Assembly (NCBI RefSeq): GCF_026210795.1
Contig: NC_089434.1
Coordinates: 2,294,001 to 2,358,000 of the forward strand
Reading direction: 5' to 3'
DNA: 64,000 nucleotides
Source: Rhizophagus irregularis
Taxonomy: Eukaryota
Shown here in pieces: positions 17,340-50,689 of this stretch. How positions within the stretch are numbered: the first letter of the stretch is position 1; the number at the start of each line of letters is the position of its first letter. The notes below the pieces were generated by a model, which was not told where the DNA came from, ran no database searches, and worked only from the letters and a program-made list of their open reading frames with translations. The translations under genes and the position numbers were made by a program.

Positions 17340-17900
17340 TAGTGCTCCGAACAGATCAGGTCAGATCAGGTCAACCGATTAACCTGACCTGATTTTTTTT
17401 TCAGGTCGAATCAAGTCAGGTATAATCAGGTAAACGGGTATAAACTAATCTGACCTGTAATCTGAAAATATTCAGGTTTATATTCAAGTATCAAATAGAC
17501 AATTTCGATTTGCAACATTGGCGCAATTCTGCATTCCTGCAAGCCGTTTATGACTAAATAATATAATTATATTATTTAGTCATAAACGACTTAGAATAGG
17601 TTATTTAGTAATAAAATAATCTAGATATGATTAAATAATCTAAATATAACTAAATAATCTAAATATAACTAAATAATCTAAATATAACTAAATAATCTAA
17701 AGTTAATAATCTAATTATGGTTAAATAATCTAATTAAATAACCTAATTGTGATAATTTTTTATATCTACCTATTTTTCTTATTATATTTCTTGCCTTTGA
17801 AATCGAATTTCTTTTTCCATTTCCTATTTATCATTTGTGGTCATGTGATTAAATAATCTAATTATGACCATGATTAAATAACCTGAATACGCCTATTTTT
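17340..17900. mobile_element. Truncated hAT-like MITE end with ACCTGA subterminal repeats and a 17-bp minisatellite
   Basis: Starts TAGTGCTCCGAACAG; many TCAGGT/ACCTGA motifs; CTAAATAATCTAAATATAA tandem at ~17615-17740. No matching right end with TSD found. Confidence 0.45.
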
Positions 17901-18146
17901 ATTAGTGTTTGCGGTATTATAAATACTTTTTGATATAATTTACGTTGATTATGTTCTACAGCCTTTTCATTACCAATTTGATACCTTCCTGTTTATACTT
18001 ATCTCTACCTGATTGGGGGCCGGCTTTTATATTGGAAATGTTAGCCTTCTGTGTCAATTTGGATGCTGGTTCTATGATAAGAATGTAGCCTATTTGGTTT
18101 GCCTCTCTAGATGTCAAAATATGGTAAAAAAATATCGCGTTGGGTG

Positions 18147-19056
18147 TAGGGATGGTAAAGTCCTAGGTCCTGGACCTAAAGACCTGGTCCTAGGACCTGG
18201 TCTGCAGATCTTTAGGTCCAAATTTTGGACCAGAAGCGGACTAGGTCCTAAAAAGTCCTAGCCAATAAGGTTATAAGAGATCTATATGTTTAAATTATAT
18301 ACACACGTCAAATGATCAAAAATAGGCAAAAAAAATGGCGCAAATCGCATAAACTATTCGCAAATTTGTATAAACTATTTACAAATAGTATAGGTTAATT
18401 CGTAAATTGCCAAAAACAGCCAAGAATAGCCAAGAATAGCCACTGCTTTTCGCGCCATTTTTTTTGCCGATTTTTAGCATTTCGACCTGTGATATGTATA
18501 ATTTGCTGTAAATTTGATTTTAAGTAATTATAAATTATAAAAAAGTGCACTGCAATATTGCAATACAATTTTTATATTATTAAAATCATATAAAAAATGA
18601 GTTGCGATATTGCGATTCACATTTTTATATTAAAATCAATATAAAAAAGTGAATCGCGATAACACAACTCACTTTTTTTATATAAAATCAATATAAAAAA
18701 GTGAATCGCGATACCGCAACTCACTTTTTTTATATAAAATCAATATAAAAAAGTGAATCGCGATACCGCAACTCACTTTTTTTATATAAAATCAATATAA
18801 AAAAGTGAATCCCGATACCGCAACTCACTTTTTTTATATAAAATCAATATAAAAAAGTGAATCCCGATATCGCAACTCACTTTTTTTATATTTAATTATT
18901 ACTAAAATTCATAAAATCTATAAATAACTTAGTCAGGACCAGGTCCTGGGACCAGGTCCAGGACTGGTCCTAATAGGACCTGGTCCGCAGGTCCGTTCAA
19001 TAGGACTTATAGGTCCCAGAACCAGGACCGGACCAGGACCGACCTAACCATCCCTA
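18147..19056. mobile_element. hAT (Ac-like) MITE with internal ~52-bp tandem array
   Basis: TIR TAGGGATGGT / ACCATCCCTA; exact 8-bp TSD GTTGGGTG (18139-18146, 19057-19064); GGACC/GGTCC subterminal repeats; tandem AAAATCAATATAAAAAAGTGAATCGCGATACCGCAACTCACTTTTTT at ~18540-18890. Confidence 0.9.
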
Positions 19057-19639
19057 GTTGGGTGGCGCAGTAGATTTGTGATTAATTTCGGCTGACACTA
19101 TGGCATAATTCAGGCTGATCTTTTGGGTACGTGATTTGAGGGTCCAACTCAGTGCCATGGTAGCGACCTGGCAGTGCCTTGGGACTTTCCTGGAACTTTT
19201 ATCGAACTGGCAGGGTACTGGAGTGTTTCTATTAATTTGCCAGTTTCAGTACCAGCTTTGGATGCCGAAATATTATGCCCAAAGATCTGGCCAAAATTGT
19301 GAAATAGTGTTGACTGAATTTATACTGCACCTTACTGCATCATGGTCATATGATCCTATTCTGGCACTGAACACCCTTTGCCATATAATATAGCAAATTC
19401 GGTTAATTCTATTAGTTCACCAGTTCAGAAGTATGATATGCATTATTATGGCCAGCCCATTTGATTACCAAAAAGTGCGCCATCCTACAATCTAACTATT
19501 GACTATTTATTGCTGGTATATGTATGCCAATTTCGTATCCCAATATTTGAATCATTAGAACGCATTTATATTATATTTTACCATATTTTCAGGCATATTA
19601 GGATATAAATGAAAAAATCGAAATTTTTCTGTAGAGTGT

Positions 19640-20140
19640 AGACGCTATGAACATTTTTCTGTGAACACTATGGACGCTTCTATGGACAACCATGGTATTA
19701 TTTTTAGGGTTTTTAAGTTTATTGCTTATTTTCTTTTATATTTGTCCCTAGTGTCTATAGTGTCCCTAGTAAAAGTAAAGTTGTAGGAAAATTTTTGAAA
19801 CTTTTCCTATGCTATATATGTTCCATTATATGCGATTATTTTTTATGCGATATGGGTGGTATATGTGTAATATATGCTATGCTAAAAAATAAAAAAAAAA
19901 GTTAAGAGATCCGATTTTTTCTATGGTCACTATGGTCAATATGGTCACCCATCTGTAAAGCCTTTTAGAGATCTAAAAGCATCAAAAACCCTACTTCCGA
20001 CATCCACAGAAGCGTCCATAGTCTGATTTTTTCTATGGTCGCTATGGTCACCCATCTGGACGGCTTTCCAGGAATCTAAACTGCCCAAAATCTACTTCGA
20101 CGTCCATAAGCGTTTATAGTCCAATTTTTTCTACGACAAC
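19640..20140. repeat. Iteron-like direct and inverted repeats upstream of the primase-helicase gene
   Basis: Many CTATGG(A/T)C / GTCCATAG motifs. Inverted pair at 19668-19687 and 20003-20021, an imperfect ~110-bp direct duplication (19912 vs 20024), and an A-rich tract at ~19883-19900. Confidence 0.65.
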
Positions 20141-20564
20141 TTTCTAAGACCAGTTCTGTATCGTATCAAACCTTTTAATTTTATCGAGATTTCCTCTCAT
20201 CGCCTCTGGAGCTTTGCCCGCTCTGAAACATCTTATTTAACTTTTTCTGGTGATAATATGCATTTGAATGGCACTTATTTACATGCCAATTACAATATCC
20301 ATATTTTGATGCTATCGGTCTTACACACCCATCTTGTTTGCACGGATGTCGCTGACGTCTTTTCCAGTGAATATGACACCCTTGTGGTCAGTCTGCAAGA
20401 TTTCCACAAACCATCCCTTCATTGGAAGGATATTGGCAAATGTATTCACCTCCCATTATTCTCAGATAGCTTTTTGATGACTATAATAAATAATTATTTT
20501 CATTTTAAACTTTTTTACTATAGTAATATACTAAAGGGTATACTTAGATATCATATCCCAAAAA

Positions 20565-23500
20565 ATGACCAAATCTGACTTCTTCGAAGACGCGCCCTCC
20601 GTCCCGTACTATTATGGGTTTAAAGTCTCCAACATAGGACAATACTTTTACAAAATTCGTGATGATAGTATCAGGCCAAAAGAATTTCTTGGTGCAGACA
20701 ATGAGGATGAAATAGAAGCCATACTCTCAGATCGTGAAGGTCATTCTTTACATGAATTCATTGATGGTGATGAGCCACTCCGGCCTATTATAGATTTTGA
20801 TTTGCCAGTAGAAACATTAAATGCTATTACTCCCAAGCTTTCAGGTGGTTAGGCAAAAAATATACTTTGTCGTAGCTTTAGAGATTAGAGATACTTGCCT
20901 AGAAATATTCCCAAAATGGGATAAAAATACTATGTCTATTGCTGATAGTAATGATGAGAAAAAAATATCTCTACATGTCTTAACTTCTGGCATGAGACTC
21001 CCAAATATCGCTCAGGTCACAATGTTCACTGAGCTTGTCTGTAAGAAACTTCCAGAAGGGTTGCAAGGAAAAGGTATTATCGATAATATAGCAAACAAAT
21101 GATCATTCTCCTTACGAATGATTGAAACACCTAAGTTTGATGAAAAGACTGGAAAACACATTTGTGTGAAAAAAACTATTCTCCCAAAGATGGAACAATC
21201 TTCGACTTCATGCTTCGTCCACCCAATGATGAATCAGAAGTCATAGAAAGTCCTCTCTTAGTCATTCCGGAGTCAGAAAGTATAAGTCATAGTAGTATGG
21301 GCATTGATGTAACAGAAGTCGAATTAGAATTAGTTGGGAAATTGCTCCAAGAGACCAGCATAGAAGGATTTAACCTCTCGTTCCCATCTTAACAATCTCC
21401 TGATATCTTTCCTCTTAAATGCATGGCCCAATCATATTGTTCATTATGTGACCAAGAACATACCAACGAAAATGCATATATTATACGAAATAAAAAATCA
21501 TATAGTTTTCATTACTATCGAGTAGACCAGGAAAAGCCACCTGGGTCAAGAAAGCCTTCAATAAAACTTACTCCTAGTGAGACAGCTTTGAGCTGAGAAA
21601 AGAACCTTCCGGCTCCAGTAAAATTAGAACAATCTAGAATTTCAAACCCAAAAGACCATTTTGTATGGTGGAATTTAATACGTATGTGTACTTTAAGTAA
21701 GAAATTCTCCTGCGCTGAAGTTTATGAAGCAATCCAATCAACCATTGCTTATATTCAAAAGAAAATACCAATCTGAATATTAAAACATAAGGATCCAGAA
21801 AATGGGCTTTACTTCAATATGGGAGCTGAGCTAAAGCTTGCCAAGTTTGAGATTAAAATAATCAAATATAGGGGTGAATCGGTAAAGTTAAAATCGTTAA
21901 TAGACCAGGCAGTTATTAAAGGTCTAATCGTTTACGAAGATTATTACTTCCTCCCATATCCCATAAGCATTCTTCAACCAGATTCAGATTTCTTTAACCT
22001 TTTCCTAGAATTTTTAGCTAAGCCGGGGACTCGAGCCGAGCTACAGTCTGGCTTGGCTCGGCTTGAAGATTTGCGCCAAGCCAAGCCTGAAATGAGCCAA
22101 GCCACAAAAAATCTTGGCTCAGCTCAATTCGAGCCAAGCTGAGCCATGAAAATCCTGGTTTGAGCCAAGCTGGGCTCGAGCTGGCTCGAGTTTTATCATA
22201 AAAATGTTTTCGCAACGTTTTTACTTTAAATTATTAAAAAAAGCGTTGCAAAACGTTTTTTACTTTTATATTTATATAAAACGCCGAAACTATTTGTTTC
22301 AGCATTTTTCCTTTTGATTTTACATGTAAAAACGCCGAAACTGATAGTTTCATCGTTTTTTTTCGATTTTACATGTAAAAGCGCCAGAATAATTAGTTCT
22401 GGCGTATTTCCTTTTGATTTTACATGTAAAAACGCTGAAACTGATAGTTTTGGCGGTTTTCTTTTGATTTTACATGTAAAACCGCCGAAACTGATAGTTT
22501 TGGCGGTTTTCTTTTGATTTTACATGTAAAAATGCCGAAACTGATAGTTTTGGCGTATTTCTTTTAATTTTACATGTAAAAATGCCGAAACAGATAGTTT
22601 TGGTATTTTTATTCAATTGTACATGTAAAAACGCCAGAATAATTAGTTCTGGCATTTTTCTTTTTGATTTTACATGTAAAAATGCCAGAATTATCAGTTC
22701 CGGCAGTTTCTTTTTGATTTTACATGTAAAAATGCCAAAACTATTAGTTCCGGTGTTTTTTTTCAATTTTACATGTAAAAACGCCAGAATCATTAGTTCC
22801 AGCATTTTTTTTTCAATTTTACATATAAAAACGCCGAAACTATTAATTCCGGCGTTTTTTTTTCAATTTTACATGTAAAAACGCCAGAATCATTAGTTCC
22901 GGCATTTTTTTTTCAATTTTACATGTAAAAACTTAAATAAACATTTTCGCAACGTTCTTTAATAAACAATGAAAAAAAGTTGCGAAAACGTTTCGTTTAT
23001 GCATGCATTATTATATAAAAACGTTTCGCAATGTTTTTTGTATAATAGCTCGTTTGGCTCGTGAGCCAGCTCAAGCTTTTTGAGCCAAGTCTGTTACAGG
23101 CTCGAGCTTTTTGAGCTGAGCCTAATAACTGGCTCGAGCTCTTCTAAACTGGCTCGTGGGCCACCAAGCCAATTTAATCATGGCTTAGCTTGGCTCAGCT
23201 TGAAAAGCTTGAGCCAGCTCATAAGCCAGCTTGGCTCGTGTAAAGCACTACCAGTGATAAAGGTTAATAAAGAAATTATGGATCTGATTCTCTGACATGT
23301 AAAGAATATAATTTGCAATGGAGATGAAAAACTCAATGAATATATCTGGAACTGGTGGGCATATTTAGTTCAAAAGCCAGAAAAGAAGCCTCGAACAATC
23401 TTAGTACTAAAATCCACTTTACAACAGTATGGGAAAAATATTATCACTGATTTTATTGGTGATAAAGTTCTAGGAGAGCATCTTCACTATGCAGGATCGG

Positions 23501-24969
23501 ATTTGGAAAAAATGCTTAGGCGCTTTAATAGCGTCATCCAAGCTCGAAAACTTATTGTTATGAATGAGACTGGGATGTCTAGTGGAGAATGGCATAGATT
23601 TAATGGGCATCTTAAATCTCTTATAACAGAAGGGAAGGTATCCATAGAACGCAAAGGTCTCGAAACTAAGAGATTAAAAGATTTTGCTGGATATATGATT
23701 ACAAGCAATCAGGATGCACCAATTAAGATAGATATAGGAGATTCTTGCGTAGTCTGTTTTGAAGTCTCAGCATGCTGTAGGAGTAATATACCGTATTTTG
23801 ACCAGCTAGGAGAAATTCTAGATCATCCTGATGCACCAGGTATGGTTATGACATACTTTCTTAATCTTGATTTATCAAAATTTAGTCTGGAAAAAATTCC
23901 TAATACTAAAATGAAAGTAGAAACAATGCGCAATCATCTCCCTAATCCTATTCGGTTTATAATAAATTATATTTCATTATAGGATGTGAATAAAATAGCT
24001 AAGCTAAGCAGTACATCTCTATATCAACATTATCTTGAATGGTGTGAAGAGAATGGAGAAAAGCCATTAACTAACAATATTCTCGGCCAGAAGTTTGCAC
24101 AAATCAGCATTGATAAAGTGCGTTCACGAGATAATGGAGTAAGAGTAAATCAGTATATTCTTGGCCGCTCCAAGATTGTAGCTAAGCTTCGTAAATCTGG
24201 CCTAGGCGATATGGAAGAATTTTCTGATATATCTCAAGATGACTTACCCGAAAATGAGACAGCAGACATACCCATATTCAATGTGCCAGAAATTATTCCC
24301 CCAAAAATAATCCCGACTCTTCTAGAAAAGAATACGCCTCCACTTAATACTAGTAAAGATAAGAAGGCGGATAAGAAGAGCGATGTGACTCAAGACCTTT
24401 TCGACTACGTAACAGAACAAACTGAAGCTCCGGTCGCCTCAACAGATCTTGAAGGGACCACATCTGGCACATCTGAGACTTCTAAAACGCCTGAGTCACC
24501 AATCAATAAGCCCAAAGTCGGTAAGCCTCCTGAATCTAACGAGTCTAGCAACGAAGTGGTGAATTTATCTCCTAAAGAAACAAATGTTAAGCATGATTCT
24601 CCAAAGCCTAATGAAGTATCGTCTGCTATACTCCTGGCTAGACAACAGCGTGAAGAGCGCCTCAGAAAAAAGGCAGTCGAACTCGGTGAGAATCCAGATG
24701 CCTTTGTGACCATCACCGAAAAAGACCGATTCGATTCCATTACATTCCGTGATAGAATGGTAACTGATTCACGAATGTGTGCTTGGGCTATAGAGCTAGA
24801 GGATAATTCCAAAGAACATATGGACATGACAATACGAGAAAGATTAATAGGAGAAGAAATAATCTGTTGTTCTCTCGAGGAAGATGAGATCATATCCTCA
24901 TGGCTCGATACCGATAAGAAATGGAAAAAAACAGTAAGCATACTCCAGAAGAATGGTATGCTTTGGTAA
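20565..24969 (+). pseudogene. AEP primase-Zn ribbon-SF3 (D5-like) helicase fusion, disrupted
   Basis: HEFIDGDEPLRPIIDFD (AEP motif I), KISLHV (motif II), IIDN..SFSLRM (motif III), CSLCDQEHTNEN (Zn ribbon), LVLKSTLQQYGKN (Walker A), KLIVMNE (Walker B), YMITSN (motif C), LYQHYLEWCEENGEKP (D5 C-terminal wHTH-like). No introns seen. Several stops and frameshifts plus the insertion at 22027-23250. Confidence 0.85.
22027..23250. mobile_element. hAT-like MITE inserted in the primase-helicase gene, with ~50-bp tandem array
   Basis: GAGCC/GGCTC subterminal repeats on both sides; right end ...GTAAAGCACTA, left TIR eroded. About 13 units TTTTACATGTAAAA-CGCC(G)AAACT..AGTTT(C)GGCG at 22270-22930. Reading frame FLAKP|VIKVNKE rejoins across it. 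Confidence 0.8.
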
Positions 24970-25315
24970 AGAGCGAATAAAAAGCCGGCCCTCTCGTTCA
25001 AGAACTTCGAGGTGGATATCTTCAAATCTTTTTTCTCATCCCACAGGTCGATAGATCAAGGGGAATTCTAAATTATTATTATTATTTTTTCGCTTATCCT
25101 ATCAACCTGCAATTTTAAAATCGATGTAAATCTATCCCAGGCCAAGCAGGTAGCCTTAAAGAGATCTCTGCGTAAGTTATATATTTTTTTCCCTTTCTCT
25201 AATCCCCGATATCTTTCACCGACTATGAGATAGTGAAATGTCGGAATATTTTTTTCGAATTGAACTTTTTTCTGCATAGTATAACCAAACAATCTACATA
25301 TTACCAAATAGTATC

Positions 25316-26477
25316 ATGGCTGGCATCGCTACTAAGTATGTAACAGAAAATGGGCTTAATAACGAAATAAGTATCGAAGAGCTCATTCAACATGCGCCAG
25401 AATTTAACATCCTTTTGACGGATAAAGTTAAGAGAAATCAGGCACGTCGATGTCTTCAAAAAGGATACAACTTTAGCAAAGAGTAGATATTTGCATTGAT
25501 TCTTAAGCTGATGGCTGGTCGAAAAAAAGGTGAAGCTATATCCCATAATACTCCAGATACTCCCAATGTTCTCCAAGAAGTAGAACCGGTGGAGGGAGGC
25601 ACGGTAAATGTGTGCCAAATTTCGCAAAAAGAGACTATTAGAGATTTGGCCCAGCGTATCATTCGGGATAATCTTGGTGAAGCAGAAGTAAAAGTTATAG
25701 CTAAAGCCTTAGCTGAATCTGCCTCTAATGCTAGCACTGGTTTATCCCGAATTTCTAGGCTTCGAAGAGAGTTGCGAAATCTCAAAGTCTCAGAAAAAAT
25801 TATTTCGGCTACATTGATTCCAGACATAAATCGCTTAGCTAATAAAATTCAAAAGGAAAAAGGTTTGCTATGTGAAAATGAAGGCATTGATTACCCAGAT
25901 TACTTTGCGTTAGAATCAGTTAAGAAAAGATTGGATGTGTATGATGTATCCAAAGTTCCTGGCTTGCAAACCCTTGCCGATATATAAATAATAATGCTCT
26001 GCATCCGTCTTGCTGAAATAAAAACCCTGCGTATATCTAATGGAGGTGTAACTGGATATGCAAAAAACCGGGAACAACAAGACATTTCTCGAGTATTTAG
26101 ATTACTAGAAAAGAACGAGGAGCGGGCTAGTCAATTGCTTATGTGGATTCAGGAAGCAATTTCTTCCAGACACTTACGAGACCCTGGAAATCCTGGAGTG
26201 TTATGGTTTAATACATTTCTGAAAAAAGATGAGTTCCTTCCTGAAACTGGCAAACCACTACTTCCTAGTTCTTTGCGCAAATTAAGGGCGGTATTTGCAG
26301 TCGTTTCGAATTGTGCGAAGAATTTATCAGAGGCTATGACTATTGCCAGTGAAGCACTTCGCTACAGTCCTGACAACCATGCCTCTCCTGCAAAAAACTA
26401 TACTATAGTAAATTATCGCAAAAGAGGACAACCTCACTGATCAGGCAAAGGCAATCAAGATTTTTGATGAAAACTAA
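25316..26477 (+). pseudogene. Tyrosine recombinase / telomere-resolvase (protelomerase)-like protein, disrupted
   Basis: Catalytic-type residues in the right order: MLCIRLAEI (R), GYAKNR (K), PSSLRKL (HxxR position), EALRYSPD (LRH position, here Y), PAKNY (Y). Helical N-terminus SRISRLRRELR. In-frame stops at ~25484 and 25985 and a frameshift near 26438. Family call is by motif only. Confidence 0.6.
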
Positions 26478-26609
26478 TCACATATATGGGTTAGAGGGGA
26501 TCCTAGAGAGATCAGATCAGGAGGCATTACCTCTGGTAACCCTGGTATCATTTATTAATTTTATTTTTTCGCTCGAGACAAGATCTAGCATATAGAATAT
26601 ATTACGAAA

Positions 26610-27026
26610 ATGGTAGCTGATCAAAAGTATTCATCTGATATATCCAGCGAGCAGGAAGTTATCAGATATACAGAGAAATTACCCCAGTCATTAGGACTGG
26701 ATGAGCAGAATACAAGAGCATATAAAGCACTCTCTAGACAGATTTGGGCGTTAGAAAAAAGACTGGAAGATTATTATTTCGAATATGTAAAGCTTAAAAA
26801 GAAGGTCAATTTATTGAAAGCTGAATTGGATGATCTGGACGAATGTGTGGATAGGGAGACTGTGGTCGACTTAATTCATGAAATAGTTCTTTCGCTGATT
26901 GGTAAAGCAGGGCAGAAAGAATGTAAGGGTTCTTCCTATTCGTCTGACTCTTCCAAAGAATCTGATTTAGTTGAGATGGTAAGAGAACGAAAAGCTGTCC
27001 CTCATAAGCAACGAAGGAAGGCGTGA
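26610..27026 (+). CDS. Hypothetical coiled-coil protein
   Basis: ATG-initiated, intronless 138-aa ORF with heptad stretch LEKRLEDYYFEYVKLKKKVNLLKAELDDL. Confidence 0.5.
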   Translation: MVADQKYSSDISSEQEVIRYTEKLPQSLGLDEQNTRAYKALSRQIWALEKRLEDYYFEYVKLKKKVNLLKAELDDLDECVDRETVVDLIHEIVLSLIGKAGQKECKGSSYSSDSSKESDLVEMVRERKAVPHKQRRKA

Positions 27027-27118
27027 CCAAGAAAAGTTAAGCGGGTGGTAGTTTGAAGTGGGCCGAGCCAGAATTTTATTTTTTCGTTTAAAGATACAAC
27101 ATATAAAATGGAATATTT

Positions 27119-28427
27119 ATGACGCAATCAAGCATCTTTTATTTACCAGAAGTATTAGAACATATTTTACATTTCTTATTGATAGATAAATCCATCTACC
27201 CTGCTCTATATGTTTCCCAATTGTGATACAGATGCGGTACCCTATTCTATGGAGATGCATTGAGCTAAAGGGAATGATCCCAAAGCAAAGAAATTCATAA
27301 AATTAGTATGTGGAAAGCAAAAGCCAATTTATAGCTTGAAACTAACCCATCTCGAAATTCCATACTATAATCTACTTTCAAGTAAGAAAATTGAAGGCAT
27401 CGTAAGAACATGCCCAAACATAATTCATTTGAATTTCGAAAATTGTGTGGGTTTTAGTAATAGAGCATTAAATCAGCTTAAAGCATATCCCAATGTGAGA
27501 TATCTCAATTTATGTAGTAGTGGTATTATGGGTGATAAAGCTTTATGTGGAATGGTGGAATCATGTCGTAAAATAGAATATCTAAATATTTCTTTCTGTC
27601 AAGGCATTACTGATAGATCTTTAATCAAAATTGCGGACAGTTGTCAAGCTTTACAAAAGTTTCATTTTGCTTGTGCGCATTTGATTTCTGAAAGATTTAT
27701 AAGTTACATCTTAAACTCATGCCCAAATTTACTAAGATTCAGTATTCCGGGTAGCTGTCGAAGAAAAAATAGATGTGATATATTAGTAGAAAAACTTCTT
27801 ACTATAGAGAAATACCTTAATGTAGAGAAACATCTTAGTGTAGAGTATCTTGATTTTGGTAGGTGTGTTTACATCGCTGAGACTTCAATTTGCAATGCCA
27901 TTCATTCCTGTCCAAATCTCCAACATCTCAACCTTAGTTTTTGTGGAATTACTGATAAAACTATCGAAGAAATTGCTAGATCATGTTATATTTTAAAATA
28001 TCTTAATTTAAGGGGGTGTTATAAAATTAGCAAAGGAGTCGTAAATAAGCTAAATCCAAATATCCACATAGAGAATTTCGAGGAAACTTTATCACATCCC
28101 GATCTCATTAGAGCAGTTAGAAATCATCTTATACAGAATAATGTTTTTAATAGATAAATTTTAGCTCAGGGTCTTCAGCGCCTCTTAGATTTAAGTATGC
28201 GAGATAATTTGCAGTGGTATTCCGATCCAGGGTTGGCTAGATCAACAGTTCAGAGTGGTGGTCGGTTATATAACACCCGGCATAGTGTTGCTAATAATCA
28301 AAATTCAGTTCTATCTCAGATACACTGGCAACCTAACAGACGGTCACTAAGGAATTATTTTGATAGAATACTAGCTAATCAAGCAAAATGCTGGTACTCT
28401 ATTGATCTAACTAATCCGGAGCAGTGA
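27119..28427 (+). pseudogene. F-box / LRR (RNI-like, FBXL type) protein, disrupted
   Basis: F-box-like IFYLPEVLEHILHFL...ILWRCIEL (frameshifted), then Cys-containing LRRs such as [26 protein letters not shown]; in-frame stop at 28155. Confidence 0.8.
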
Positions 28428-28480
28428 TCAGCTCAGAAGATTTTTTGTTGGGTTATAGTCTGTGTGATAAAAAATATAGA

Positions 28481-29107
28481 TTAGCTAACCTGTTCTAGAC
28501 ATGGGCATTGACCGGCACTAGATGGATTTTTGATGAATATTTCGTGCAATTGTTGAGGAGAGAGCTTCAGAAATAATGGAAGCCCCTCTCCAGTAAACAT
28601 AATTTTCTTTACACCTATTTCACCATATTTCGGAAATATCACACCTGGATCATCCTTTAAGGGACCATGAAACTCCTTAAGCTTCCGGAGATATGCTCTC
28701 ATATTTTCATCAACTTCTTCTGCTCTTTCTTGATTAGAATAGCCAACAATGTCGAGTTTATCCTGAATTGCTATTATATCCTCTTTCAAACACATAAACA
28801 AATTAAATATTTCACTAAATGGAATATCTGTAGAAGCTTTATTGCTTCGGAGTGCTTCTTCTAGAATGGGATTACCATCAATATTGAGTTTCTCCTGAAT
28901 CGGTATTAAATCCCCTACCAATTCTAACAACAGCTCGTAAGAATCGGCAAGTGTTTTTCCCATGAGCTCGGAATCTAGAGGCACTACTAATTCATTTGCA
29001 TTGCCAGGGCCAATACCGAGTTTCTCCTAAATAGCTATTATATCCTTCTTCTTATATAAAAACAGTCCATAAAACTGAGCAAGCGTTTCAGGGTTATTAT
29101 TTGCCAT
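28481..29107 (-). pseudogene. Hypothetical protein with internal repeat
   Basis: 167-aa ORF with two I..IQ(E/D)KL(N/D)I.G motifs; upstream ATG at ~29107 separated by a stop. Confidence 0.4.
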
Positions 29108-29687
29108 GCCACTCCTGTGTGACAGAAAAATAAGTGGATCAGCAGTCAGCCTCATGTGCAACATAATTTTCGCATATATATCAAAAAACATATTAACCTT
29201 TATTATTTATTTTTTCCTGAACAATCATGAGAAAAATGGCCTGCTTCACAGGCGCTTCGCTTGAAAGGAAGTCTACATGCAACACAAAACCAACTCTAAA
29301 AGTAAATAGTGCGACAAAAGCATATGTTATGAAAGGCTGAGGACTTTGGAATTTTGAGATCGCTAGGCGTAAAACCAACTGTGTCTTTCTGGTAGATCTA
29401 CATGTGAAAGGGTATAAGAATTACATTTGCATGTGCCTTCATAGAACTCTTGGCATCAGACAACAATACTAATTACGCTTTATATCTCCTTATCTTTGGC
29501 TTGGCGCTCTTTTTCCCAGCAAGATATAAAGCATGTAATGGTATGTGGAAGTTTAGCCAACATTTCTCAAAAAACTTTCCCAGAGAAAATAGTTTCACTA
29601 GCGTAGCTAACGCAAATAAGGTATGTATATGCCAGAAGTTGTGTATTTATGGGGACGAGTTTTCTCACTACGGGCTCTTGTTTTTAG

Positions 29688-30095
29688 ATGTCTGATAAAG
29701 CTAGTATTATTACTCTCAACTGTCTCATCTCCGGCGAGGAAGCAAACGATGTCTTTGGAATAAAAATATCTTGCGAAGGAGTATCAAACTCAAATGATAA
29801 TCGAGTTTCTATTCTTGCAGATAAAATCAGAAACTGTCGTCTAGATCTATTTAAAGATACTGATTCGAGCAAGCTAATTTTATATATGAATAAGGCTGAA
29901 GCTGATAGTGTCGTAATTCTCGGCTTAAAAAATGATAAAGGGGCTATATTGAATGGTACGGAATTGATGAAGCATGAAAACACCATTTTAAGTTATTTTA
30001 ATGGTCAACCCTCTCCTAAATATCAAGGCGAAAAGGGGTCAATATTATCGTATATCCTCCTACAGATGATTAATATTTTCATTCGTATCATGTAA
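29688..30095 (+). CDS. Divergent Crinkler (CRN) N-terminal ubiquitin-like domain protein
   Basis: ITLNCLISGE...FGIKI...VSILADKI...KLILY..., the same pattern as the CRN domain at 30485; probable frameshift near the end. Confidence 0.55.
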   Translation: MSDKASIITLNCLISGEEANDVFGIKISCEGVSNSNDNRVSILADKIRNCRLDLFKDTDSSKLILYMNKAEADSVVILGLKNDKGAILNGTELMKHENTILSYFNGQPSPKYQGEKGSILSYILLQMINIFIRIM

Positions 30096-30484
30096 AGCGG
30101 TCCCGGTCAGACCTCTATTCGTATTTTTTATGTAATGTAGGCCGACTTCTGTCAATAATTTATTTCATAAATAAAGTATTATTATTGTATTGTATATGAG
30201 AAATGGGTCACGTGTAATGGTGCGGTCCAAATCTAACATTTTTATCTGAACTAATCTAGCCTAATAAAAAATGTCAGGTGATAAGTGAGAAGAGTCTTCA
30301 TGGTTAGGGAGGCGCAGTGATTAGGTGATCGTTGCACTTGACCGATTATACGGCAGGCTTGTGAAATAGAATAATTTTTCACATATAGTATTTTTTTGCA
30401 AATAAAATTCTTTTTACTCTTGTCCTCACATACCGCACTTTGAGCCAATAACATTTCGCAAAAAATACTATATAAGCCGAAAAC

Positions 30485-33400
30485 ATGTCTATCACTTTAC
30501 TATGTCTTGTCAAAGGAAATACGACCGCTAGTGCTTTTCCTGTCGATATTAATAAGGACCAGCTTGTAGGCTACCTCAAGAAAGTTATTAAGGCAGAAAA
30601 GCAAAATGACTTCGCTGGAATAGACACAGACAAGCTCAAGCTATGGAATGTGTCGATATCTGACGATCAGAACGATCTCTTAAACAATCTCACACTCAAT
30701 GACGGGGACGAGCTCCTTGCAACAAGAAAGATTTTGAAATACTTTCCAGACTCACCTCTCGAAGAACATATTCATGTTATTGTAAAATTGCCACGTAAGT
30801 GTCTGGAGTGTCTGGTATAGTCTAATTTTTCGTCATTTGCCCTTGTAATATTAACACGCATTCGTTTTCAGTTCTCAGCTTAGAAGAGGCTTTGTTGTGT
30901 ATTCCACCACCCATAACATATTCTCCGGACTGTACTAAATCGAAGACCACTACAAAGGTTAATGGTGGCCCACTGACGAGTGTACAACTATGGGACGACT
31001 TTTTTGATAAAGTGAATCAATTCCGCTTCGACCAACAACCGATATTAGAGAGGCCAAAATTTGTGGTGAAAGAGATAGAAAATGAAGAGGATGTTCGAAG
31101 TGTTTTAGATTTCAATATTTGTCAGACATTGAATTATCTTTTGGGATCTGATCATAAATTTTCAAGATGTTCACCTGATACTCCTGGCATACCGGATTTC
31201 ACCTGTCATCTTGTGGGTTCGTTGATCTTGGTGATTGAGGCAAAAAGAAAGCATGTTTTAGAAGATATGGGCGAAGAAATATTTCCCGAGTTTTATCAGA
31301 CGAGTAAAGGCAAGGATGTACAGTCAACTCTCTATAAATGCACCACCCATAAATGCACACCCTCTCTAAATGCACACATTTGCTTAGTCCCAAGTTTGGG
31401 ACTTAGTGCTAAATACATACCCTTTATATATACACCGTGCAATGATTTTAAAAGTCCCACCTATATCAGTAATAATCTCCCTAAATGCATTCACGTGACT
31501 TTTAGATGATTTTCACGTGATGTACTGCGGTTTTTATAGACACGTTACTGTGGGAATTTCATCTTTTTTTGACGGAAAATAAGTCAACATGCTTCCTAAA
31601 ACTCCCAAAAAAAAGTCACTTTAACAGACTCTCAAAAATATGAACTTTGTCTTTATGCTAGTAATAATAAAAAAACTCGAGTTCAGTATATAGACTGGGT
31701 TGAAGAAAAGTGGGGAGTTAGAGTTGACAAAACTACTATAACACGAATCTTATAAACTAAAGAAAAGCGGCTTATCACTGAAGTCATTTACCCAGAGCAA
31801 AAACGGCACAAACCTGTTACCTTTCCAGAACTTGAGCTTGCTCTCAAGGAGTTTGTGTTAAATTATCAGCACCGAACAATCCTAAGTGATGCGATACTAG
31901 TTGAAAAGGCCAAGTTACTGGCAAATGGGTTGGGAGTTCCTGAAAATATGTTACAATTTTCTTCCGGTTGGCTTCAAGGATTTAAAAAACGTAATGGAAT
32001 CCGTCAAGAAAAGCTTCAAGGAGAAACAGCATCAGCTAATGAAACTGCTATTATGGAAGCCTTACCATTATTACATAATAAGTGTGTCAATTACCCTCTT
32101 GAACGTATCTATAATATGGATGAAACTGGGCTTTTTTACCAGTATATTTAATTTTTTTTATTATCTAAGGTGGTAGGCTTGAACAGAATCCAAATATGAC
32201 TATAATTATTTATTTAATTTTTTTATTGTTTTGCAGATTAGAACCAGATCAAACACTAGCTACAAAACGTCTTTCTGGATGAAAGAAAGCAAAGAACGCC
32301 TTTCTATAGCTTTGTGTTCAAATGCTGATGGATCACATAAATTACCTCCTTTAATAATCGGCAAATATGCAAATCCAAGGTGCTTTAAAAATATCAATAT
32401 TTACAACTTACCCATGACATACCGAAATAATGCTAAAGCTTGGATGCTCATAACAATTTTTCAAGAATGGCTTCATGAATTTGATCATCAAGTTGCATTA
32501 AAACATGGAGGTCAACGCGTTTTGTTGTTACTTGATAATTGTACAAGTCACAAGGTGGAAAATCTTGCCCTTCTGCATGTTGAAATTCAATTTTTACCTC
32601 CAAACACAACATCAAAGATTCAGCCAATGGATGCTAGAATCATCATGTCATTTAAAAAACATTATCGTCATCATCATATCCGGTAAGTAACTAACTATAT
32701 TTATATTTTATTTTACTGAATAATTTATTATTTTATTTAGTTGGTTGTTAGAACAAGTTGAGGCTGGACAAAACATACAGGATCTAAAGATAGATATTTT
32801 GCAAGCCATTCGGTATATCATTCCAAGTTGGAATGAAGTTACAGTTGAAACAATCTGAAACTGCTGGAATCAAACCAGGATTCTTCCTGATAACGAATAT
32901 GATGAAACTGATAATGAAGACGATGATCAGATGATTGATGAACTTTCTAGAACAATTCAAGCCCTTAATCTTCCTAATGTAATGCGAGTAAAGGAATTTC
33001 TTAATATTCCTGAAGAAGATATTACATATGAAATTTTTGAAGATGAACAAATCATTACGGAACTTATAAACATTTTTAAAAATTCTTACGAAAATACTGA
33101 AGATTTGGATGAAATAGATGATAGTGACGAGATAGTAACTATAAGCACTAATATAGCATTAAAAAGCTTAGAAACTGTGAATATGTTCTTACTTCAACAA
33201 GAAAATACTGAAGAATATATCAAATTAATAGGTAAAATTGAAAAATTTATTAGAAAAAAATAGGTACATATGATGCAGCAGACTACAATTGATCAGTATT
33301 TTAATTAATAACTGTATTATTAATTATAATAAATGCTAAATAATTAAATTGAATAATAAATAATGTTAACATATAATATAATGCATTTTTTCTGATTTTT

Positions 33401-34376
33401 AGTGTTTCTGTAATGTAAAATCTAAAAAAAAAATTTTTTTTTATAAATGCACACCCTTTATAAGTGCACGCTTATAGCTGGTCCCAAGGGGTGCATTTAT
33501 AGAGAGTTGACTGTAGTTCAACAAATTTATAATTATATGGGAGAAAACGAACTTAGATACGATATTCTTACTACCTACGATAATCACTGGTTTCTATGCT
33601 GAGAACACACGAAGCTCTGGATCTCAAAAACCCTTTCACTAGAATCCGAATCTCCACCCGTACTCAAGGCATATGCTTATCTAACTCGACAGGCGAAAGA
33701 GAATCCCAACTCTCCTAAACTTCAAGTACTAGTGCCAGCTCAAGGGGACAATGATTCACATACTCTTCAATCAAACTCAAAATTATCATCCAGCTCTTCA
33801 TTAACTAATCAGGCTTCCAGCACCTTTTCGAATCAACAATCATCTTCTAACGTCCCAGTAAATTAGCAAAAGTTTAGCTTTGCAGACTTCAAGTTTAAGA
33901 GCATACTAAGTGGAAAAACGCTCCTATGCGAATTTCATGGTGAAATGATTGCTTTGAAGAGTGTAGACTTATCGAAGGCTCCATCGTATGTCCTGGAAGA
34001 AATGCAAAAAGAAGTCGAGATTTATAAAGATCTAGCTGATATTCAAGGCAAGTATATCCCAAAGCTGATCTGTTATGGATATTATGGAAGAGGTATGAGC
34101 TTCGTTATCGGCATGACCATTGTCAGCACTTCGTTGAGCGAGCAAAAAATAAAGAAACGGCAAAAGACAAGGGCTATTAAGGGATTAGAAGCGATCCACA
34201 AGCATGGCATCCTCCACAATGACATTCGGAAGGAAAACATCTTAATTAATGATGATGGTGGCGTCTATCTGATTGACTTCGGTATGGCAAGTCGGGAGGA
34301 CACAAAAAAGAAGAGAAAGCTTTTCGAGGAGGAACAGCTCAAATACTCTAACTTGCTAGATAGATATAATACGTAA
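30485..34376 (+). pseudogene. Crinkler-type CRN + PD-(D/E)xK REase + protein kinase gene, interrupted by a pogo element
   Basis: CRN header MSITLLCLVKG..AFPVDI..LKLWNV..HIHVIV; intron ~30795-30871; IPDF..LVIEAKRK..GKDV|VQQIYNYM rejoins across 31321-33513; kinase IALK, HNDIRKENILI, LIDFG. Confidence 0.88.
31321..33513 (+). mobile_element. pogo/Tigger DNA transposon with decayed CENP-B-like DDE transposase (~31589-33310)
   Basis: TIRs CAGTCAACTCTCTATAAATGCACC, TA TSD; FSSGWLQGFKKR, YNMDETGL, LLLLDNCTSH, FLPPNTTSKIQPMD; two introns and premature stops. Confidence 0.95.
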
Positions 34377-34719
34377 GATTTATTATTTCACAAATTCCTA
34401 TTTCTTGCAATCTTGCGAAGCGCCTTAACGGCTAATTTCTTATAATTAATAATCATGTATTTTACAGACATTTTGTAAAGAAGGAGGGGCGAATTTCCAA
34501 GTCACGTAAATGTCAGGTGGTTAGTTAGACTGTAGGATTAGCTATAGCATAGACGCCATGTATCTCGGGCAAAGTCCTGAACCTTTGTATTTATTTTTTT
34601 GCATGTAATAATAAAAAAATTTCTTGGCAAAACCGTGAACAATGTTCACGATCAGCCAAAATGGCCTACATATTTTTATTTTAAATGTTTATATACAGTG
34701 TATTAGTTATATATAGATC

Positions 34720-36860
34720 ATGTCATCTGAGCTTGAATTATCGAAACAGCGTATCACTGAACTTGAGGCTGAGAATTCCGGTCTTAGAATCAAGCTCTCA
34801 GTGTCTGATGCTGAAATAGCTGAACTTAAGCACAGTAATATCGAGTTTCTAAGAGCGAATAAGGAATATAACGAGAGGCGTGATGCTGAGAATGCCAAAC
34901 TCAAGGCCAGAATCGAGGAGATGGAATCTGAGTTTGAAGATAGAATCACGAAAGTGGAACAGAAGCAGACTCTGCAAAGCGCCTTAACGGCAAATTATAA
35001 TTCTTCTAACAACAGTTCATCTAATTTCAATTTGGTTGTAGATCAGGTGCTAATGGTAACGCATCACAAGAAACCATTGGTGGATACTTCATTACCTGAA
35101 GACAAGGAAACAGATGCTTTCTTGGGTGAGGTGCATAAGAAAAAGGTTAGTAATGAGATTAGGCAGAGAAATCAGGAAAAAAAACTTTACTTTAGCGCCT
35201 CCGGCCAAACCCAAAAGTCTCTTCCAATAGGGTCCCAAAGGGATCAGAGGCCTCAAGTTCTTGACTCGATTACTCAGCCATGCAATAGCGCATCATCAGA
35301 AGTATCAGCTAATTCAGATGGCGGGGAAGTACCTCCAAAATAGTGTTCCAATCCGTCAATCCCCCATCCGTATCCGTCGTCGAATATTCGTCATTTTCGG
35401 ATATCCGTCATTTCGGATATCCGTACATACGGATAGGACGGATCACGGATATCCGTGATAGATTGACGGATCCCATCCGATCCCATCCGAATTAAACGGA
35501 TCATCTGGATAATCCGATTTTTACTACATAATTCTGGTCAAATCTGTAATGCTGGCCAGAATGATAAAAAAATTTTTTTTTCAACTTTGTGTTACACAAA
35601 TGTTACACAACATAATTCGGGCTAGCACTATGAATTCGGCCCAATTTAAAATTCAACGGATATCCGAGGTTATCGTCACACGGATATCCGTCATGTCGGA
35701 TATCCGTACATACGGATAAGACGGATCACGGATATCCGAAAGTGGCGGATGACGGATGACGGATTATCCGCGGATTGTAACACTACTCCAAAAGAGAAGA
35801 TAGGTAGTGAACTGGATTCAAAGTGCAAGAAGGTGGGAAGAATTGTGAACAGCTTTTAAGCAGAATTTATTTGCTTCGGAGCCGTATTCACGAGAGCTAT
35901 TAATAGAACGAAAATCACGTTGACCGAAATTTCTGAGACATTATGTCCAGAAAAATTACCTCTGATAAATCCAGCATTGATGAGGCCTCACAATATCTAG
36001 CTCAGTTATGCGATAAAGCTTTTGATGCTGAAGATAAAACCAATCGAGCTAATCAGGAAGAAATTTTATGCTGGTGCCTCTATGCGAAAGATTTCATAAT
36101 TCAGCTCAATGAAATTATAGAAAGTAGGGGAGGTAAATTCGGTGAAAAGAAGGCAAGAGGCTTACTGTATGATTCCATTACAAAACAGCTTAATTTGCTT
36201 CGTAAATAGAGATCCCAAGAAACGGGGTTACAACTTCGAGATGTATCATGAGATAGTTTGCGCAAAAAAATCCAGAGAGCCGAGAAAGTCTATAAATTTA
36301 TCGAACAAGTGGGGCTAGATAAAATCAAGTATATTAAATCTTATAGTGCGACTTCTATTTCAGAGCTTACTAATGAGCAAATTCAAAAGGTTATAGATTA
36401 TGGAGTATCTTCAGAAAAAATATCTCTAGTAACTGATCATGTAACTAAAATTTCTGAGACATTATGTCCCAGAAAAAATTTGTCTGAAAATACTCCCGAT
36501 CAGAATAATGTATTGGAAGTCTTGTCTTCAAAGGAATCAACTGCACTTATTTCATTAGCCCATCCCTCTAATTCATCTGATAATTCCAAGGAAAAGGAGG
36601 GTTCGTGATTTGATGAAAATATGTTTTTCAATGAGGCGAATCCCACTAAAGTGAACATCACCACTTCAGACGATGATGACTCTGATCCCAATGATTCTGA
36701 AAAAGAGATGCCAGACGATTCAAATGATGATGGATATAATGATTACGGTGGATATAATGAATATAGTGAACGTGATAGAGGTTATTACTACTGTGGCGGA
36801 AGATATAAAAGAAAAACCTCCCCAACGATGAGCCCTATCATCTCTCTGGTAACCGCCTAA
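34720..36860 (+). pseudogene. Hypothetical coiled-coil protein gene interrupted by a MITE
   Basis: ELSKQRITELEAEN..RRDAENAKLKARIEEME coiled coil; later fragments ANQEEILCWCLY and RAEKVYKFIEQVGLDKIKYIKSYSA; acidic tail; several stops. Confidence 0.6.
35341..35785. mobile_element. hAT-type MITE
   Basis: TIR TAGTGTT(C/A)CAATCCG (14/15 match); exact 8-bp TSD CTCCAAAA (35333-35340, 35786-35793); CGGAT/ATCCG subterminal repeats. Confidence 0.92.
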
Positions 36861-47000: not shown

Positions 47001-50000
47001 CTACAAGTTAAATATTCTATTCAAAGGTATAATCGACAAATATTTTTGTTTTCCTACCGTAATATTTCTAAATTTTGTAGCTCGACATAATATCCTATGA
47101 ACCGCTAACAGGGAATCACAACCTTCTTGAAAGTATTCGGCTTTCCATAATTCGGTATTTGATATTTCTGGCTCCATAAAACTAAGTTTAAACCGAATAC
47201 TAGAAGAAGGTGCAGGTTTATACCACTTGACATATGCTAGGAGGTGAGTTTTCGTTCCTTCTGGAAATCTAAGGGCATGCTTGAAATAATATTGGACTTC
47301 ACCCGGATAAGTGTCAACTGAATCATCATTAGCTGCTTTCCATTTTGCAAATATATTCGCATTTTTATCATGGCGACCAGAAATCATAGATCCAAATATT
47401 TCGGCGCCAATTTGTAGTCTTGCATGCTGATTCATATGCAAATCCATAAATCCTAACACATCTTCTTTTTCCCTTTCATATAATATTGCATACCATTCAC
47501 ATAGAAATCCTCGCAACTCCAAAGGCATAACGACATTGATATATGATGGGTTAAGCATTTGGCCAGGTAATGGTTCAGTGCCATATATTTTGGAAATCAT
47601 AGACGTATTATGTCTCATGAATAGAAAATGCTGCAGTTCCTCTCTTTCTGCTGTGATTGCTAAACTTCCTACAGCTTTTTTTAGTACAAGAAGATGGAGA
47701 GATTCATCTAGAAGGCCAGATGTCCATTTACATGATAAGTGATAATCCACCAAAGTGTTTTTAAGAACAATTTTCATTAATTCGGGTTTTATTTGTCGGT
47801 TACTATTAGGATATGATCCTAAATAACAGGAATTTTTTTAATAAAGGTACTAAAGACAATTGAAAAACACTGAAGTAAATTTACCTATATATCCATTAAG
47901 TCTTTCAAACGGGAAAAGCCAAAAACTATATATAGGACCATAATCACAACAGCAATCAGGGATATGAAGTGCGAGATGTATATTGCTTGTTATAAATTCT
48001 AGTCCATATGTATATTCTATAAGGTAGGCCATATCTTTTAACCTCTCTTGCGCCTCCTTCAAATCATCATCTGTAATAAATCTTGCTACTAAAAGATTAC
48101 AAGCTCGAACAAAATGCCCTAAGATCTTTCTATCATTATCATCTAGCATATCCCATAATATAGATGTAGAATAAATCATAATAAAGGTCTTCCATTGATC
48201 GCAGTTTTGTTAGAAAATCCATCATTTCCGATTGCAATCTTTGGAGGAATTCTACCAATGTCAGAAGGTAAATCAATATTATCCATTCTGTTTTGTGCTA
48301 CACGAAGTTGTTCCATAGTTAATTTTTTTGGTTTACAAAAATGGATTTGATTATCCATTTTGCAACACCGAGGAAAAGACAATGCATAGGATCTTACAGG
48401 CAAATCGTATAGGATCCATGTATGGTAGGCAAACTAACTTCAGTATCTTATACCATGTACTTTAAAATGTGCTTCTCTGGAGGACTTTGAGTTACATTGC
48501 AACCATTCATGAGCATATTGCCTATGTAATAAAAGATCTGCAGACTTTGTTACCCATTCATTATAATCTTGCATTCCTTCGTAATGAGTTTTTCTAAATT
48601 CCTTGCTATAAGTGATACGTTTATCACACCTATAGCATTTCATTACTGCAGATCAACGAGGCCAAATAACTTTCGTGTAGCTGGAGTATCAGACGATCCA
48701 ACAATTAACGCAACTTTTATTTCTAAACCATTGGAAAATTGGTGAGTTTTTGGTACTTTCCACCCCTTCCAAAGTTCTAATAACTCATCTACAATAGGAG
48801 CTAGATAATGATTAATGCGTTCCAACCCTGCTCTTTTAATCCGGTAAGAAACCCAAATATATAATATTTTTGGGCTTATTCCTTTCCTGACCTTGGAAGA
48901 TTGCAAATAGACGCATAAATAGCGCCAGTACTATGCTACGTGTAGGAGAATGGTTGGAACCAATCAAGATTAAGGAAGGACCTAGATGGGTTGTGGCAGT
49001 CTCTGTTGTAAAAAAGGTACTACCATCAAATGGAAAATTTTTCCATACCTTACCATTGTAAATATCTGAATAGATATTATTTTCGTTTTTTTGAGTCCCT
49101 GATAATTTTAACATGTTCTCAAAATCTGGTCGTTGATATAAAATGCTCAATTGCTGACGAATGTTTGGCTTAGGATAAAGCATGTGAGTACCGCAATTGT
49201 TGCATTTTTATTTTTTTGAGAATGGAAAGTGGATTATTGCATTGGTGATTACGACTTGATATTGGATTATTTGGATACTCTTTATACGGGCAATTCATTA
49301 TAGCAACTTTTCCTTCTTCCTTATATGCAATAATATCTTTAACATTATGCAATTTATGGCAATCGGTACATGCAGCTAATTGCATTTTCGGTTGAAAAAT
49401 GTTTAACCATATTTTTGCCATATATAATGAGGTAGGAAAATTTTCAAATTGCAACTTATCAAAGCGCATAAGAATTATATGAAAAAAATTTTATTAAGAA
49501 TTCAAGTGCAATATCAGGCAATCGAAATCTTTGTTGAAATTTAAATAGCCATATTATAATCTCAGTATTAATAGAATCACTTAAGCTTTCCACTATAAAT
49601 GCTTCTTCATTGTCATTGTCAATCTTAGGAGATGCGAAAAAATCTTCTACATCATCATTCTCCTCTCCTTTATCCACATCATCATTCTCTTCCTCATCCA
49701 TATTATCTACATCATCATTCTCCTCTCCTTCATTCACATCATCATTCTCTTCCCCATCCATATTATTTACATCATCATTCTCCTCTCCCTCATCCACATC
49801 ATCATTCTCTTCCTCATCCATATTATTTACATCATCATTCTCTTCCCCCTCATTTATATTATCTACATTATAATTCTCACCAAAATAATTGATTTCATCA
49901 TTATTTTCATCAATTGTAGGTGCTGAAATACGAAAACATGAAGGTTTTGATGAAAATAATGTTATATTTTCTTCAATATATTGGAAAGAGGGACCAGGAT

Positions 50001-50376
50001 GGGAAGAGTCCTGATCCGGACTAGATGTACCGGAGTAATTATTTCTTTCTCGCTTTTTTGATATGTTCAATTTTATTTCTGTATTTATATATGTATTATT
50101 AACAGATGATGTTTTTTTCTTTTTTATCATGATGGTATTTTCCTGATTTTTTCTAGAATCTTTTGATCTCGATTCCCACAAACTATCATCATACATATGT
50201 TTCTCTTGAGTATGAGAATCAACTTCTGCACCTTTGCAACGAGCACAATTGCAAATATACAAATACTTTTTTTTGGGCTTTATTAAATCAGCCACAAAGG
50301 TTTCAGAGGTTTCAACTTTACGTTTTTTATTACTCTTTATTAATTCAGATACAGAGTTACATTTTTTATTACTCAT
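47001..50376 (-). pseudogene. En/Spm (CACTA, TnpD-like) transposase
   Basis: YSDIYNGKVW, DWFQPF, ICNLP..ERNKP, INHYLAPIVDELLELW.G, DTPATRK, DPMHCLFLGV, NIHLALHIPD..YGP..FWLFPFERLNG, YPGEVQYYF; many frameshifts. Confidence 0.9.
49640..49865 (-). repeat. Coding minisatellite (alternating ~24/33-bp units, EENDDV) in the transposase N-terminus
   Basis: ACATCATCATTCTC repeated seven times; translates to NDDVNNMDEEENDDVDEGEE. Confidence 0.8.
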
Positions 50377-50689
50377 TTTTATTAAAATGTATAAAATATA
50401 TTTTTTATTCTATCACTTTTAATAGTTAGTAATCAAGACGTTCAGAAACGAGCTTTTAATAATCCTTATCATACAAAAGAATTGCACAAGAATTTTATGA
50501 GCGCGTTACTTTTACCTGGTGAAAATTGTGCAAACGCGTTGCTACCTCTGAGCCTTGATCTGCATCCTGAAATCTCCGAAATTATTATAAATTTGCACAC
50601 AATCAACTTTTCTCGCGTTCTGAAATCTCTACTTTATACGGGATTTTTTTATTTTACAAAATAACAAAAAGATTTTATACTTCGTAACA

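Follow-up and report, generated by a model that had tools for sequence, protein, structure and literature searches.

Does a decayed, recombinase-like gene of Rhizophagus irregularis descend from the telomere resolvases, and what would such an enzyme do in a fungus? The gene lies in the window (i.e., the whole stretch of 64,000 nucleotides analysed), which is AT-rich, contains many repeats, and holds intron-bearing host genes at about 8-16 kb. A sequence-only reading had placed its product near the telomere resolvases instead of the Crypton/DIRS integrases, and had suggested that it forms covalently closed hairpin ends on a linear replicon. To our knowledge, telomere resolvases have been characterised solely in bacteria and phages; the homologues in algal viruses are unproven.

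The gene was assigned to the frame 25316-26437 on the plus strand (Table 1) and would encode about 385 aa if intact. The motif series that had drawn attention to it is present in full and in order (CIRLAE, GYAKNR, SSLRK, LRY, KNY), as is the SRxRR motif of the N-terminal helical region (SRLRR, aa 147-151). The gene is dead, as had been claimed: it contains two stops (TAG at aa 57, TAA at aa 224), substitutions of His by Tyr at 350, Pro by Leu at 232, and Gly by Arg at 324, and a frameshift caused by one extra base at 26437. Contigs from three studies, one of which is possibly the source of the window, span both stops with 0-1 differences; hence, the stops are not assembly errors. In two polyA RNA runs of one study, 120 and 81 of 11 million reads mapped to 24700-29150, which is near background; these reads were mostly less than 90% alike and fell on both strands, and 25296-25742 received none. 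A T-run followed by CG was seen ahead of several open reading frames (ORFs) of the surrounding element (window positions 25085, 25249, 26564, 27079, and 30826).

Table 1. Features of the window, with positions counted from its first nucleotide (strand "." = not stranded)
Positions	Strand	Feature	Basis or remark
17545..17588	.	Perfect 44-bp palindrome, then direct repeats of its arm motif (17614-17860)	Candidate target site
19648..20133	.	Short direct and inverted repeats ahead of the primase-helicase gene; putatively origin-like	
20229..20480	-	Remnant of a small Cys-rich ORF, common to element L036	tblastn E 2e-6
20566..24969	+	Broken primase-helicase gene; DUF5906/SF3 helicase and Pox_D5	Pfam; PHROG primase matches on the helicase part
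22031..23258	.	Nested MITE-like repeat in the primase-helicase gene	Empty-site joint 22030>23259, 4/4 runs
25245..25268	+	Conserved upstream motif, T-run and CGAATTGAAC; putatively promoter-like	Most of 37 related loci side by side
25316..26477	+	Pseudogene for a DNA cutting-rejoining phosphotyrosine enzyme, protelomerase branch	Homologues; predicted structure of an intact relative, with fold searches
25820..25879 (approximate)	+	Long helix from helical DNA-binding domain to catalytic domain; aligned to the linker helix of protelomerases	hhalign; helix H85-105 of the model
26006..26401	+	Catalytic set R231, K250, R321, (H)Y350, Y362	His replaced by Tyr in the window copy
26006-26008	+	R231 of CIRLAE	
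26063-26065	+	K250 of GYAKNR	
26276-26278	+	R321 of SSLRK	
26363-26365	+	Y350 of LRY	
26399-26401	+	Y362 of KNY	
26610..27026	+	138-aa ORF without family, usual downstream neighbour	25/37 loci that reach 350 bp or more downstream
27108..28427	+	Broken cargo gene with leucine-rich repeats	Pfam LRR; 5/37 loci
28481..29026	-	ORF without family, common to L035/L036	
31317..33511	+	Nested Tc5/pogo-type transposon	Pfam; empty-site joint
35937..36608	+	Broken gene with homology to the L036 RING gene (C-terminal portion of the latter); least right extent of the element	tblastn E 1e-10

The window copy belongs to a large family. A word-based search yielded 316 homologous proteins; among the 120 matches listed, the best full-length one was 80% identical, and all named homologues came from Glomeromycota (Rhizophagus, Glomus, Gigaspora, Dentiscutata, Cetraspora, Diversispora, Entrophospora, Acaulospora, Paraglomus, Ambispora, and Geosiphon), which by itself would point to an arbuscular mycorrhizal fungus as host. 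A profile search against 1.84 billion representatives returned 546 sequences at an E-value of 0.001 or less, and among the 150 matches listed, six distant metagenomic proteins (32-37% identical) retain RPxE, GxxK, LR, LRH, and the Tyr. These six (P0193, P0199, P0227, P0245, P0248, and P0259) are Ala-rich and encoded on contigs of 1-22 kb; the N-terminal domain is absent from five of them.

Across 376 homologues and fragments, the catalytic columns hold R in 245/282, K in 251/251, R in 224/263, H in 205/241, and Y in 216/217 of the rows covering them, and of the 152 rows complete at these five columns (window copy counted), 109 have every one of the residues. The motifs thus exceed chance, and the conservation among paralogues that the sequence-only reading called for is there. 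Departures at the Arg columns of these 376 proteins are mostly Cys or His, which would fit CpG decay of dead copies. The family consensus reads CIRPAE, LRKLG, and LRH. The catalytic set has been kept under purifying selection, with a median dN/dS of 0.17 over the 65 of 136 pairs with a dS of 0.05-1.5 (dS about 0.7). An unbroken catalytic domain, defined by a strict pattern, was found at 17 of 80 metagenome loci, many of which are cut short. The intact copy P0035 sits on a 5.9-Mb contig, so live-looking copies are chromosomal.

None of Pfam (top 25 of 50 families shown in one scan), NCBIfam, PHROGs, and PDB sequences names the family; a few database labels of the homologues read "integrase," and one reads tyrosine recombinase domain. 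Pattern scans of IMG/VR and GTDB genomes, which are of limited sensitivity, gave no relative, and none of the titles and abstracts listed in searches of a largely open-access full-text library described the family or element. The family is real, of the protelomerase branch, and apparently undescribed.

Placement among the phosphotyrosine enzymes was based on predicted structures, language-model features, profiles, and catalytic spacings. The first model (P0003, from 78 close sequences) reached a pLDDT of 65 and was poor in the catalytic half; its fold search ranked Cre first and TelA fourth, with no E-value under 0.001. The second model was that of a natural relative, P0026 (75% identical, without the first ~90 residues, from 106 more diverse sequences), and reached a pLDDT of 89 and a pTM of 0.80. 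With this model, the top six Foldseek rows were TelA (E 3e-4 to 1.2e-3, TM about 0.5) and Cre came next (4.6e-3); among viral models, the EhV-86 protelomerase ranked first (E 1.4e-3) with integrases close behind. VIA-align, run on Foldseek's 870 chains, gave Z scores of 13.1 for TelA (rmsd 5.8, 257 aligned), 12.2 for TelK, and 8.9 for the ResT catalytic domain, as compared to 7.4 for lambda Int (the top integrase), 6.6 for Tre/Cre, and 5.0-5.3 for Top1. In ESM features, PF16684 accounted for 18/30 matches both of P0003 (0.94) and of the distant P0227 (0.98, 200/256 features), whose Atlas model had a TM of 0.66 to a protelomerase cluster versus 0.54 to integrases.

Profile comparisons were performed with 23 resolvases, 40 integrases, and 6 TopIB as controls; a Cre scan tried as a source of control diversity gave only 99-100% copies and was rejected. 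With alignment A4, hhalign returned 81% for protelomerases (195 columns), 12% for integrases (53 columns), and 0.2% for TopIB; the resolvase match extended over the stretch between linker helix and Tyr and kept the five catalytic residues in register. Against this, the scores were lower with A5 (49% vs 2%) and A2 (3% vs 0.3%), and the six distant members by themselves gave 41% vs 40%; six-sequence subsamples overlapped (30.4±4.6 vs 25.0±7.2), the best single draw being an integrase set, and a HMMER comparison with the controls gave no significant scores. Sequence identity is 10-17% to the controls and 12-17% to TelA. The margin of kinship is hence modest in places, namely for the first model, the subsamples, the distant members, and HMMER.

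Tyrosine recombinases carry a His three positions before the second Arg, as described in PMC3558466, and HxxR was present in 39/40 integrase controls. In the family, this position is S in 112, K in 93, R in 33, and H in 1 of 263 sequences; in the protelomerase controls, it is K in 29, R in 2, and Y in 1 of 32. Spacings from R to H are 29/31 in the family, 28/33 in protelomerases, and 23 in integrases, and those from H to Y are 12/11, 11/9, and 9, respectively; the R-K spacing of the main subfamily is short (19). The family thus departs from the HxxR and 23/9 spacing of the canonical tyrosine recombinases (PF00589: Cre, Xer, lambda Int), and topoisomerase IB is its nearest relative neither by profile nor by fold. 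A TelA-like fold is predicted, in which a long linker helix joins the catalytic fold to a helical DNA-binding domain (P0026 model and hhalign).

Taken together, protelomerase ancestry of the family is very probable. The proposed kinship with telomere resolvases rather than Cre/Xer/lambda-type integrases is therefore supported by structure, language-model features, hhalign, the missing His at -3, and spacings; as to Crypton/DIRS integrases, the comparison covered the Pfam domain DUF3504, which gave no match. The resemblance of GYAKNR to GQAKKR, from which kinship had originally been argued, is weak by itself, as Cre carries GxxK too (GRTK).

Kinship does not settle activity, and one hallmark of resolvases is displaced in the family. 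An Asp seven residues before the Tyr (TelA D398/ResT D328) was found, counted in sequence register only, in 1/157 family members versus 31/33 protelomerase controls (one control was mis-captured by the pattern). Subfamilies have an Asp at Tyr-9 (85/157), Tyr-8 (22/157), or Tyr-5 (37/157), and 22/157 members have none between His and Tyr; such a nearby Asp could do the job of D398. According to PMC12270096 and PMC13221069, D398 is conserved among characterised resolvases and not among tyrosine recombinases. In TelA, resolution is impaired by D398A while recombination rises strongly, the double mutant D202R/D398A is fully switched to a recombinase, and hairpin fusion, held down by both D202 and D398, is released by these mutations. 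The GRRxxE, RAxY, and LGH motifs are absent from the family, and its scores stay below the Pfam cut-off for PF16684. The linker helix is predicted to be kept; in TelA, it blocks the DNA path and aids hairpin refolding, and its key residues are poorly conserved even between resolvases (PMC3558466).

The genomic setting was reconstructed from related loci. The primase-helicase gene upstream of the enzyme gene has an N-terminal part that we take to be a primase from its AEP-type motifs and that matched nothing in the domain libraries searched (Pfam and PHROGs among them); it is homologous to the N-terminus of a gene at locus L036. Of the related loci, 21 extend 500 bp or more upstream; nine of these have a helicase tail of the DUF5906/Pox_D5 type, and 11 of the remaining 12 have, judged by eye, a second gene type that is whole in L036, where the homologous N-terminus is followed by a UL9-like SF2 helicase (Herpes_ori_bp, E 5e-12) replacing D5/SF3. 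Five genes are common to L036 and the window, and four of them are co-ordered (primase, enzyme, minus-strand ORF, and RING-type gene); by this common gene order, the element spans at least 20229-36608, which is about 13 kb minus nested inserts. The enzyme gene thus belongs to a conserved element, some 13-17 kb long, that also carries cargo genes and a primase-helicase of either the D5 or the UL9-like type; copies of the element are dispersed, co-linear, and chromosomal across Glomeromycota. Ahead of the primase gene, short repeats are found in the window as well as in L036. Scans of 17 window ORFs and 10 L036 ORFs gave no second integrase, and neither Pfam on these ORFs nor PHROGs on selected ones gave a capsid, packaging ATPase, polymerase (pPolB), or RVE integrase.

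Several smaller observations concern the same loci. The second element type was seen at L036:987-3650 and in the upstream region of L006, also with protease-like and RING ORFs, and two tandem 59-bp imperfect palindromes at L036:93-233, upstream of the primase gene, look origin-like. MITE-like inserts at 18133-19062, 22031-23258, and 35300-35791 of the window have empty sites in public contigs. The element span includes two Crinkler N-terminal-domain genes (29688-30095 and 30488-31509), which may be cargo, as well as a kinase-like ORF (33867-34376) and a coiled-coil ORF (34720-35343); in L065, a truncated enzyme gene is joined to sequence resembling window 30116-30183. The cassette of the 138-aa ORF is doubled in L009, which hints that cargo is gained cassette by cassette.

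Traces of hairpin ends were sought among palindromes and joints. The next-longest palindrome in the window after the 44-bp one measures 22 bp, and 20 shuffles gave 14-22 bp. The long palindrome is found ~3 kb to the left of the primase gene, from which two removable inserts separate it. It may serve the enzyme as a target site or may mark the middle of a MITE; it is treated here as a candidate site unlinked to the element. Two IMG/VR matches to its pattern were one unrelated phage sequence and were discarded. The 80 related loci, which are mostly short, contain no long perfect palindrome, and no strand-change (fold-back) joint was seen among the 15 of 322 and 15 of 34 joints listed, which come from contigs that drop rare forms. 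Candidate hairpin relics were rejected in L032, the fold-back arms of which are only 78% alike (two different copies or a chimera), and in L061 and L075, the inversions of which are without a symmetric centre. The contig data examined gave no whole-element end, empty site, or circular junction.

We tentatively propose, at a probability not far short of even, that the family is a protelomerase-derived enzyme mobilising a self-replicating fungal DNA element. The primase-helicase and a host polymerase would copy the element from its own origin, and the enzyme would link itself to the DNA by 3'-phosphotyrosine bonds at a short symmetric site carried by the element. As the strand-ejecting Asp is not in register, strands would be exchanged, resulting in recombination or hairpin fusion like in TelA D398 mutants, and strand exchange would lead to excision from and integration into fungal chromosomes; a hairpin-ended intermediate could form part of this scheme. 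The dispersed element yielded no other breaking-rejoining enzyme, and this one is without the in-register Asp; excision and integration are therefore favoured over pure hairpin resolution. As resolvases can reverse and recombine, mobilising and resolving roles are not exclusive. In broader terms, and somewhat more doubtfully, the element could represent a new class of eukaryotic self-replicating element widespread in mycorrhizal fungi and a natural resolvase-to-recombinase switch, possibly via a hairpin-ended linear intermediate.

The retained linker helix would speak against a mobilising role, and a replication-gene neighbour would suit a linear phage-plasmid layout too. A working telomere resolvase is a doubtful but substantial possibility: the element would replicate as a linear episome whose ends are covalently closed hairpins, in the manner of N15 or an algal virus with a protelomerase, and the chromosomal copies would be captured relics or by-products of reversal. 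This would explain the protelomerase fold including the linker helix, the adjoining replication gene, a layout known from N15, HAP-1, and a linear Shewanella plasmid, and the palindrome with repeated arm motifs near the primase gene; a nearby Asp could stand in for D398. It sits poorly with the many dispersed co-linear chromosomal copies across Glomeromycota and the loss of the DxxT, RAxY, and LGH motifs, the palindrome may be a MITE centre and has no long perfect counterpart in the mostly short related loci, and the listed joints, a weak argument coming from contigs only, include no strand change. The hairpin ends proposed by the sequence-only reading are similarly doubtful: intact copies lie on chromosome-scale contigs, no fold-back joint is listed, and the resolvase Asp has left its usual register.

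An unusual tyrosine recombinase or TopIB-like enzyme of separate origin, resembling TelA through a shared long helix, is unlikely. The top rank of Cre with the first model, the overlapping subsamples, and the low identity to TelA would agree with it, as would the Lys at -3 (93/263) with a Gly at +3 of the second Arg, a combination we take to be TopIB-like; against this stand the three solved protelomerases, which scored above every integrase even with the ResT catalytic domain alone, the single His at -3 among 263 sequences, the TopIB profile result, and the resolvase-like spacings. Less likely still, the gene is passive cargo or a leftover of endogenous giant-virus DNA, multiplied through other transposons or host duplication and without any role in mobility. 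Most copies are indeed decayed (with few loci passing the strict intact-domain pattern and many cut short), there is little RNA, and giant-virus remnants are known in R. irregularis (reported in PMC10640383), but dN/dS is low at a dS of about 0.7, linkage is fixed to two different primase-helicase types, and giant-virus core genes are absent from the ORFs scanned.

The mobilising enzyme preferred here can be compared to known systems. With PF16684 (TelA of Agrobacterium, TelK/TelN of phiKO2 and N15, and ResT), the family has in common the helical DNA-binding domain, long linker helix, and catalytic domain, the R-K-R-H-Y set without His at -3, similar R-H and H-Y spacing, GxAKxR, and a replication gene nearby; it differs in lacking a Pfam match, in CIRPAE, LRKLG, and LRH instead of the resolvases' GRRxxE, RAxY, and LGH, in an out-of-register DxxT, in the R-K spacing of its main subfamily, in an extra N-terminal helical domain, and in its multi-copy chromosomal state in a eukaryote. 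The putative protelomerases of algal giant viruses (EhV-86 Q4A292; EsV-1, with activity unproven as of PMC2373305) share the eukaryotic setting, and that of EhV-86 is the best viral fold match, whereas the fungal element is small, with no giant-virus core genes detected and no relative in the IMG/VR pattern scans. The engineered TelA D398A and D202R/D398A likewise combine a protelomerase scaffold with the lack of an in-register Asp; the fungal family, in contrast, is natural and conserved family-wide, and its activity is predicted.

Crypton/Glomhopper, DIRS, and Starship elements are also eukaryotic mobile DNA with a phosphotyrosine enzyme, and Glomhoppers, described as DUF3504 Cryptons, occupy the same hosts (PMC13465315). 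The family differs from them in having neither HxxR nor a DUF3504, DUF3435, or PF00589 match (top 25 of 50 families in one Pfam scan), a separation made by domain matches, and the fungal element brings its own primase-helicase. Polinton-like viruses with a primase-helicase and a tyrosine recombinase resemble it in gene pair and size, and many primase-helicase polinton-like elements in R. irregularis were guessed at in PMC11296320, the homologue table of which may include pieces of these elements, as may the repeat library of PMC11075540; unlike polinton-like viruses, the scanned ORFs gave no capsid, packaging ATPase, pPolB, or RVE integrase, and the enzyme is of the protelomerase branch.

Two-thirds of the repeats of arbuscular mycorrhizal fungi are unclassified (as given in PMC11075540), and many "helicase-primase" gene models were filtered from their annotations (as given in PMC8647823). 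A diverged resolvase family with a replication module would, if true, explain part of both. Either outcome would be new, i.e., a hairpin-forming enzyme hosted by a eukaryote or a natural recombinase on a protelomerase scaffold, and either activity bears on the evolutionary interconversion of resolution and recombination; the resolvase-to-recombinase switch has so far been produced by mutation only, and this would be its natural form.

A protelomerase-family gene was also seen on Paracoccus plasmid p2 (L087), which is recorded as circular, so that proteins of this family may not always be tied to linear replicons. Elsewhere in the window, a broken multi-ORF region on the minus strand (47001-50409) presumably resembles a Plavaka/CACTA-type transposase.
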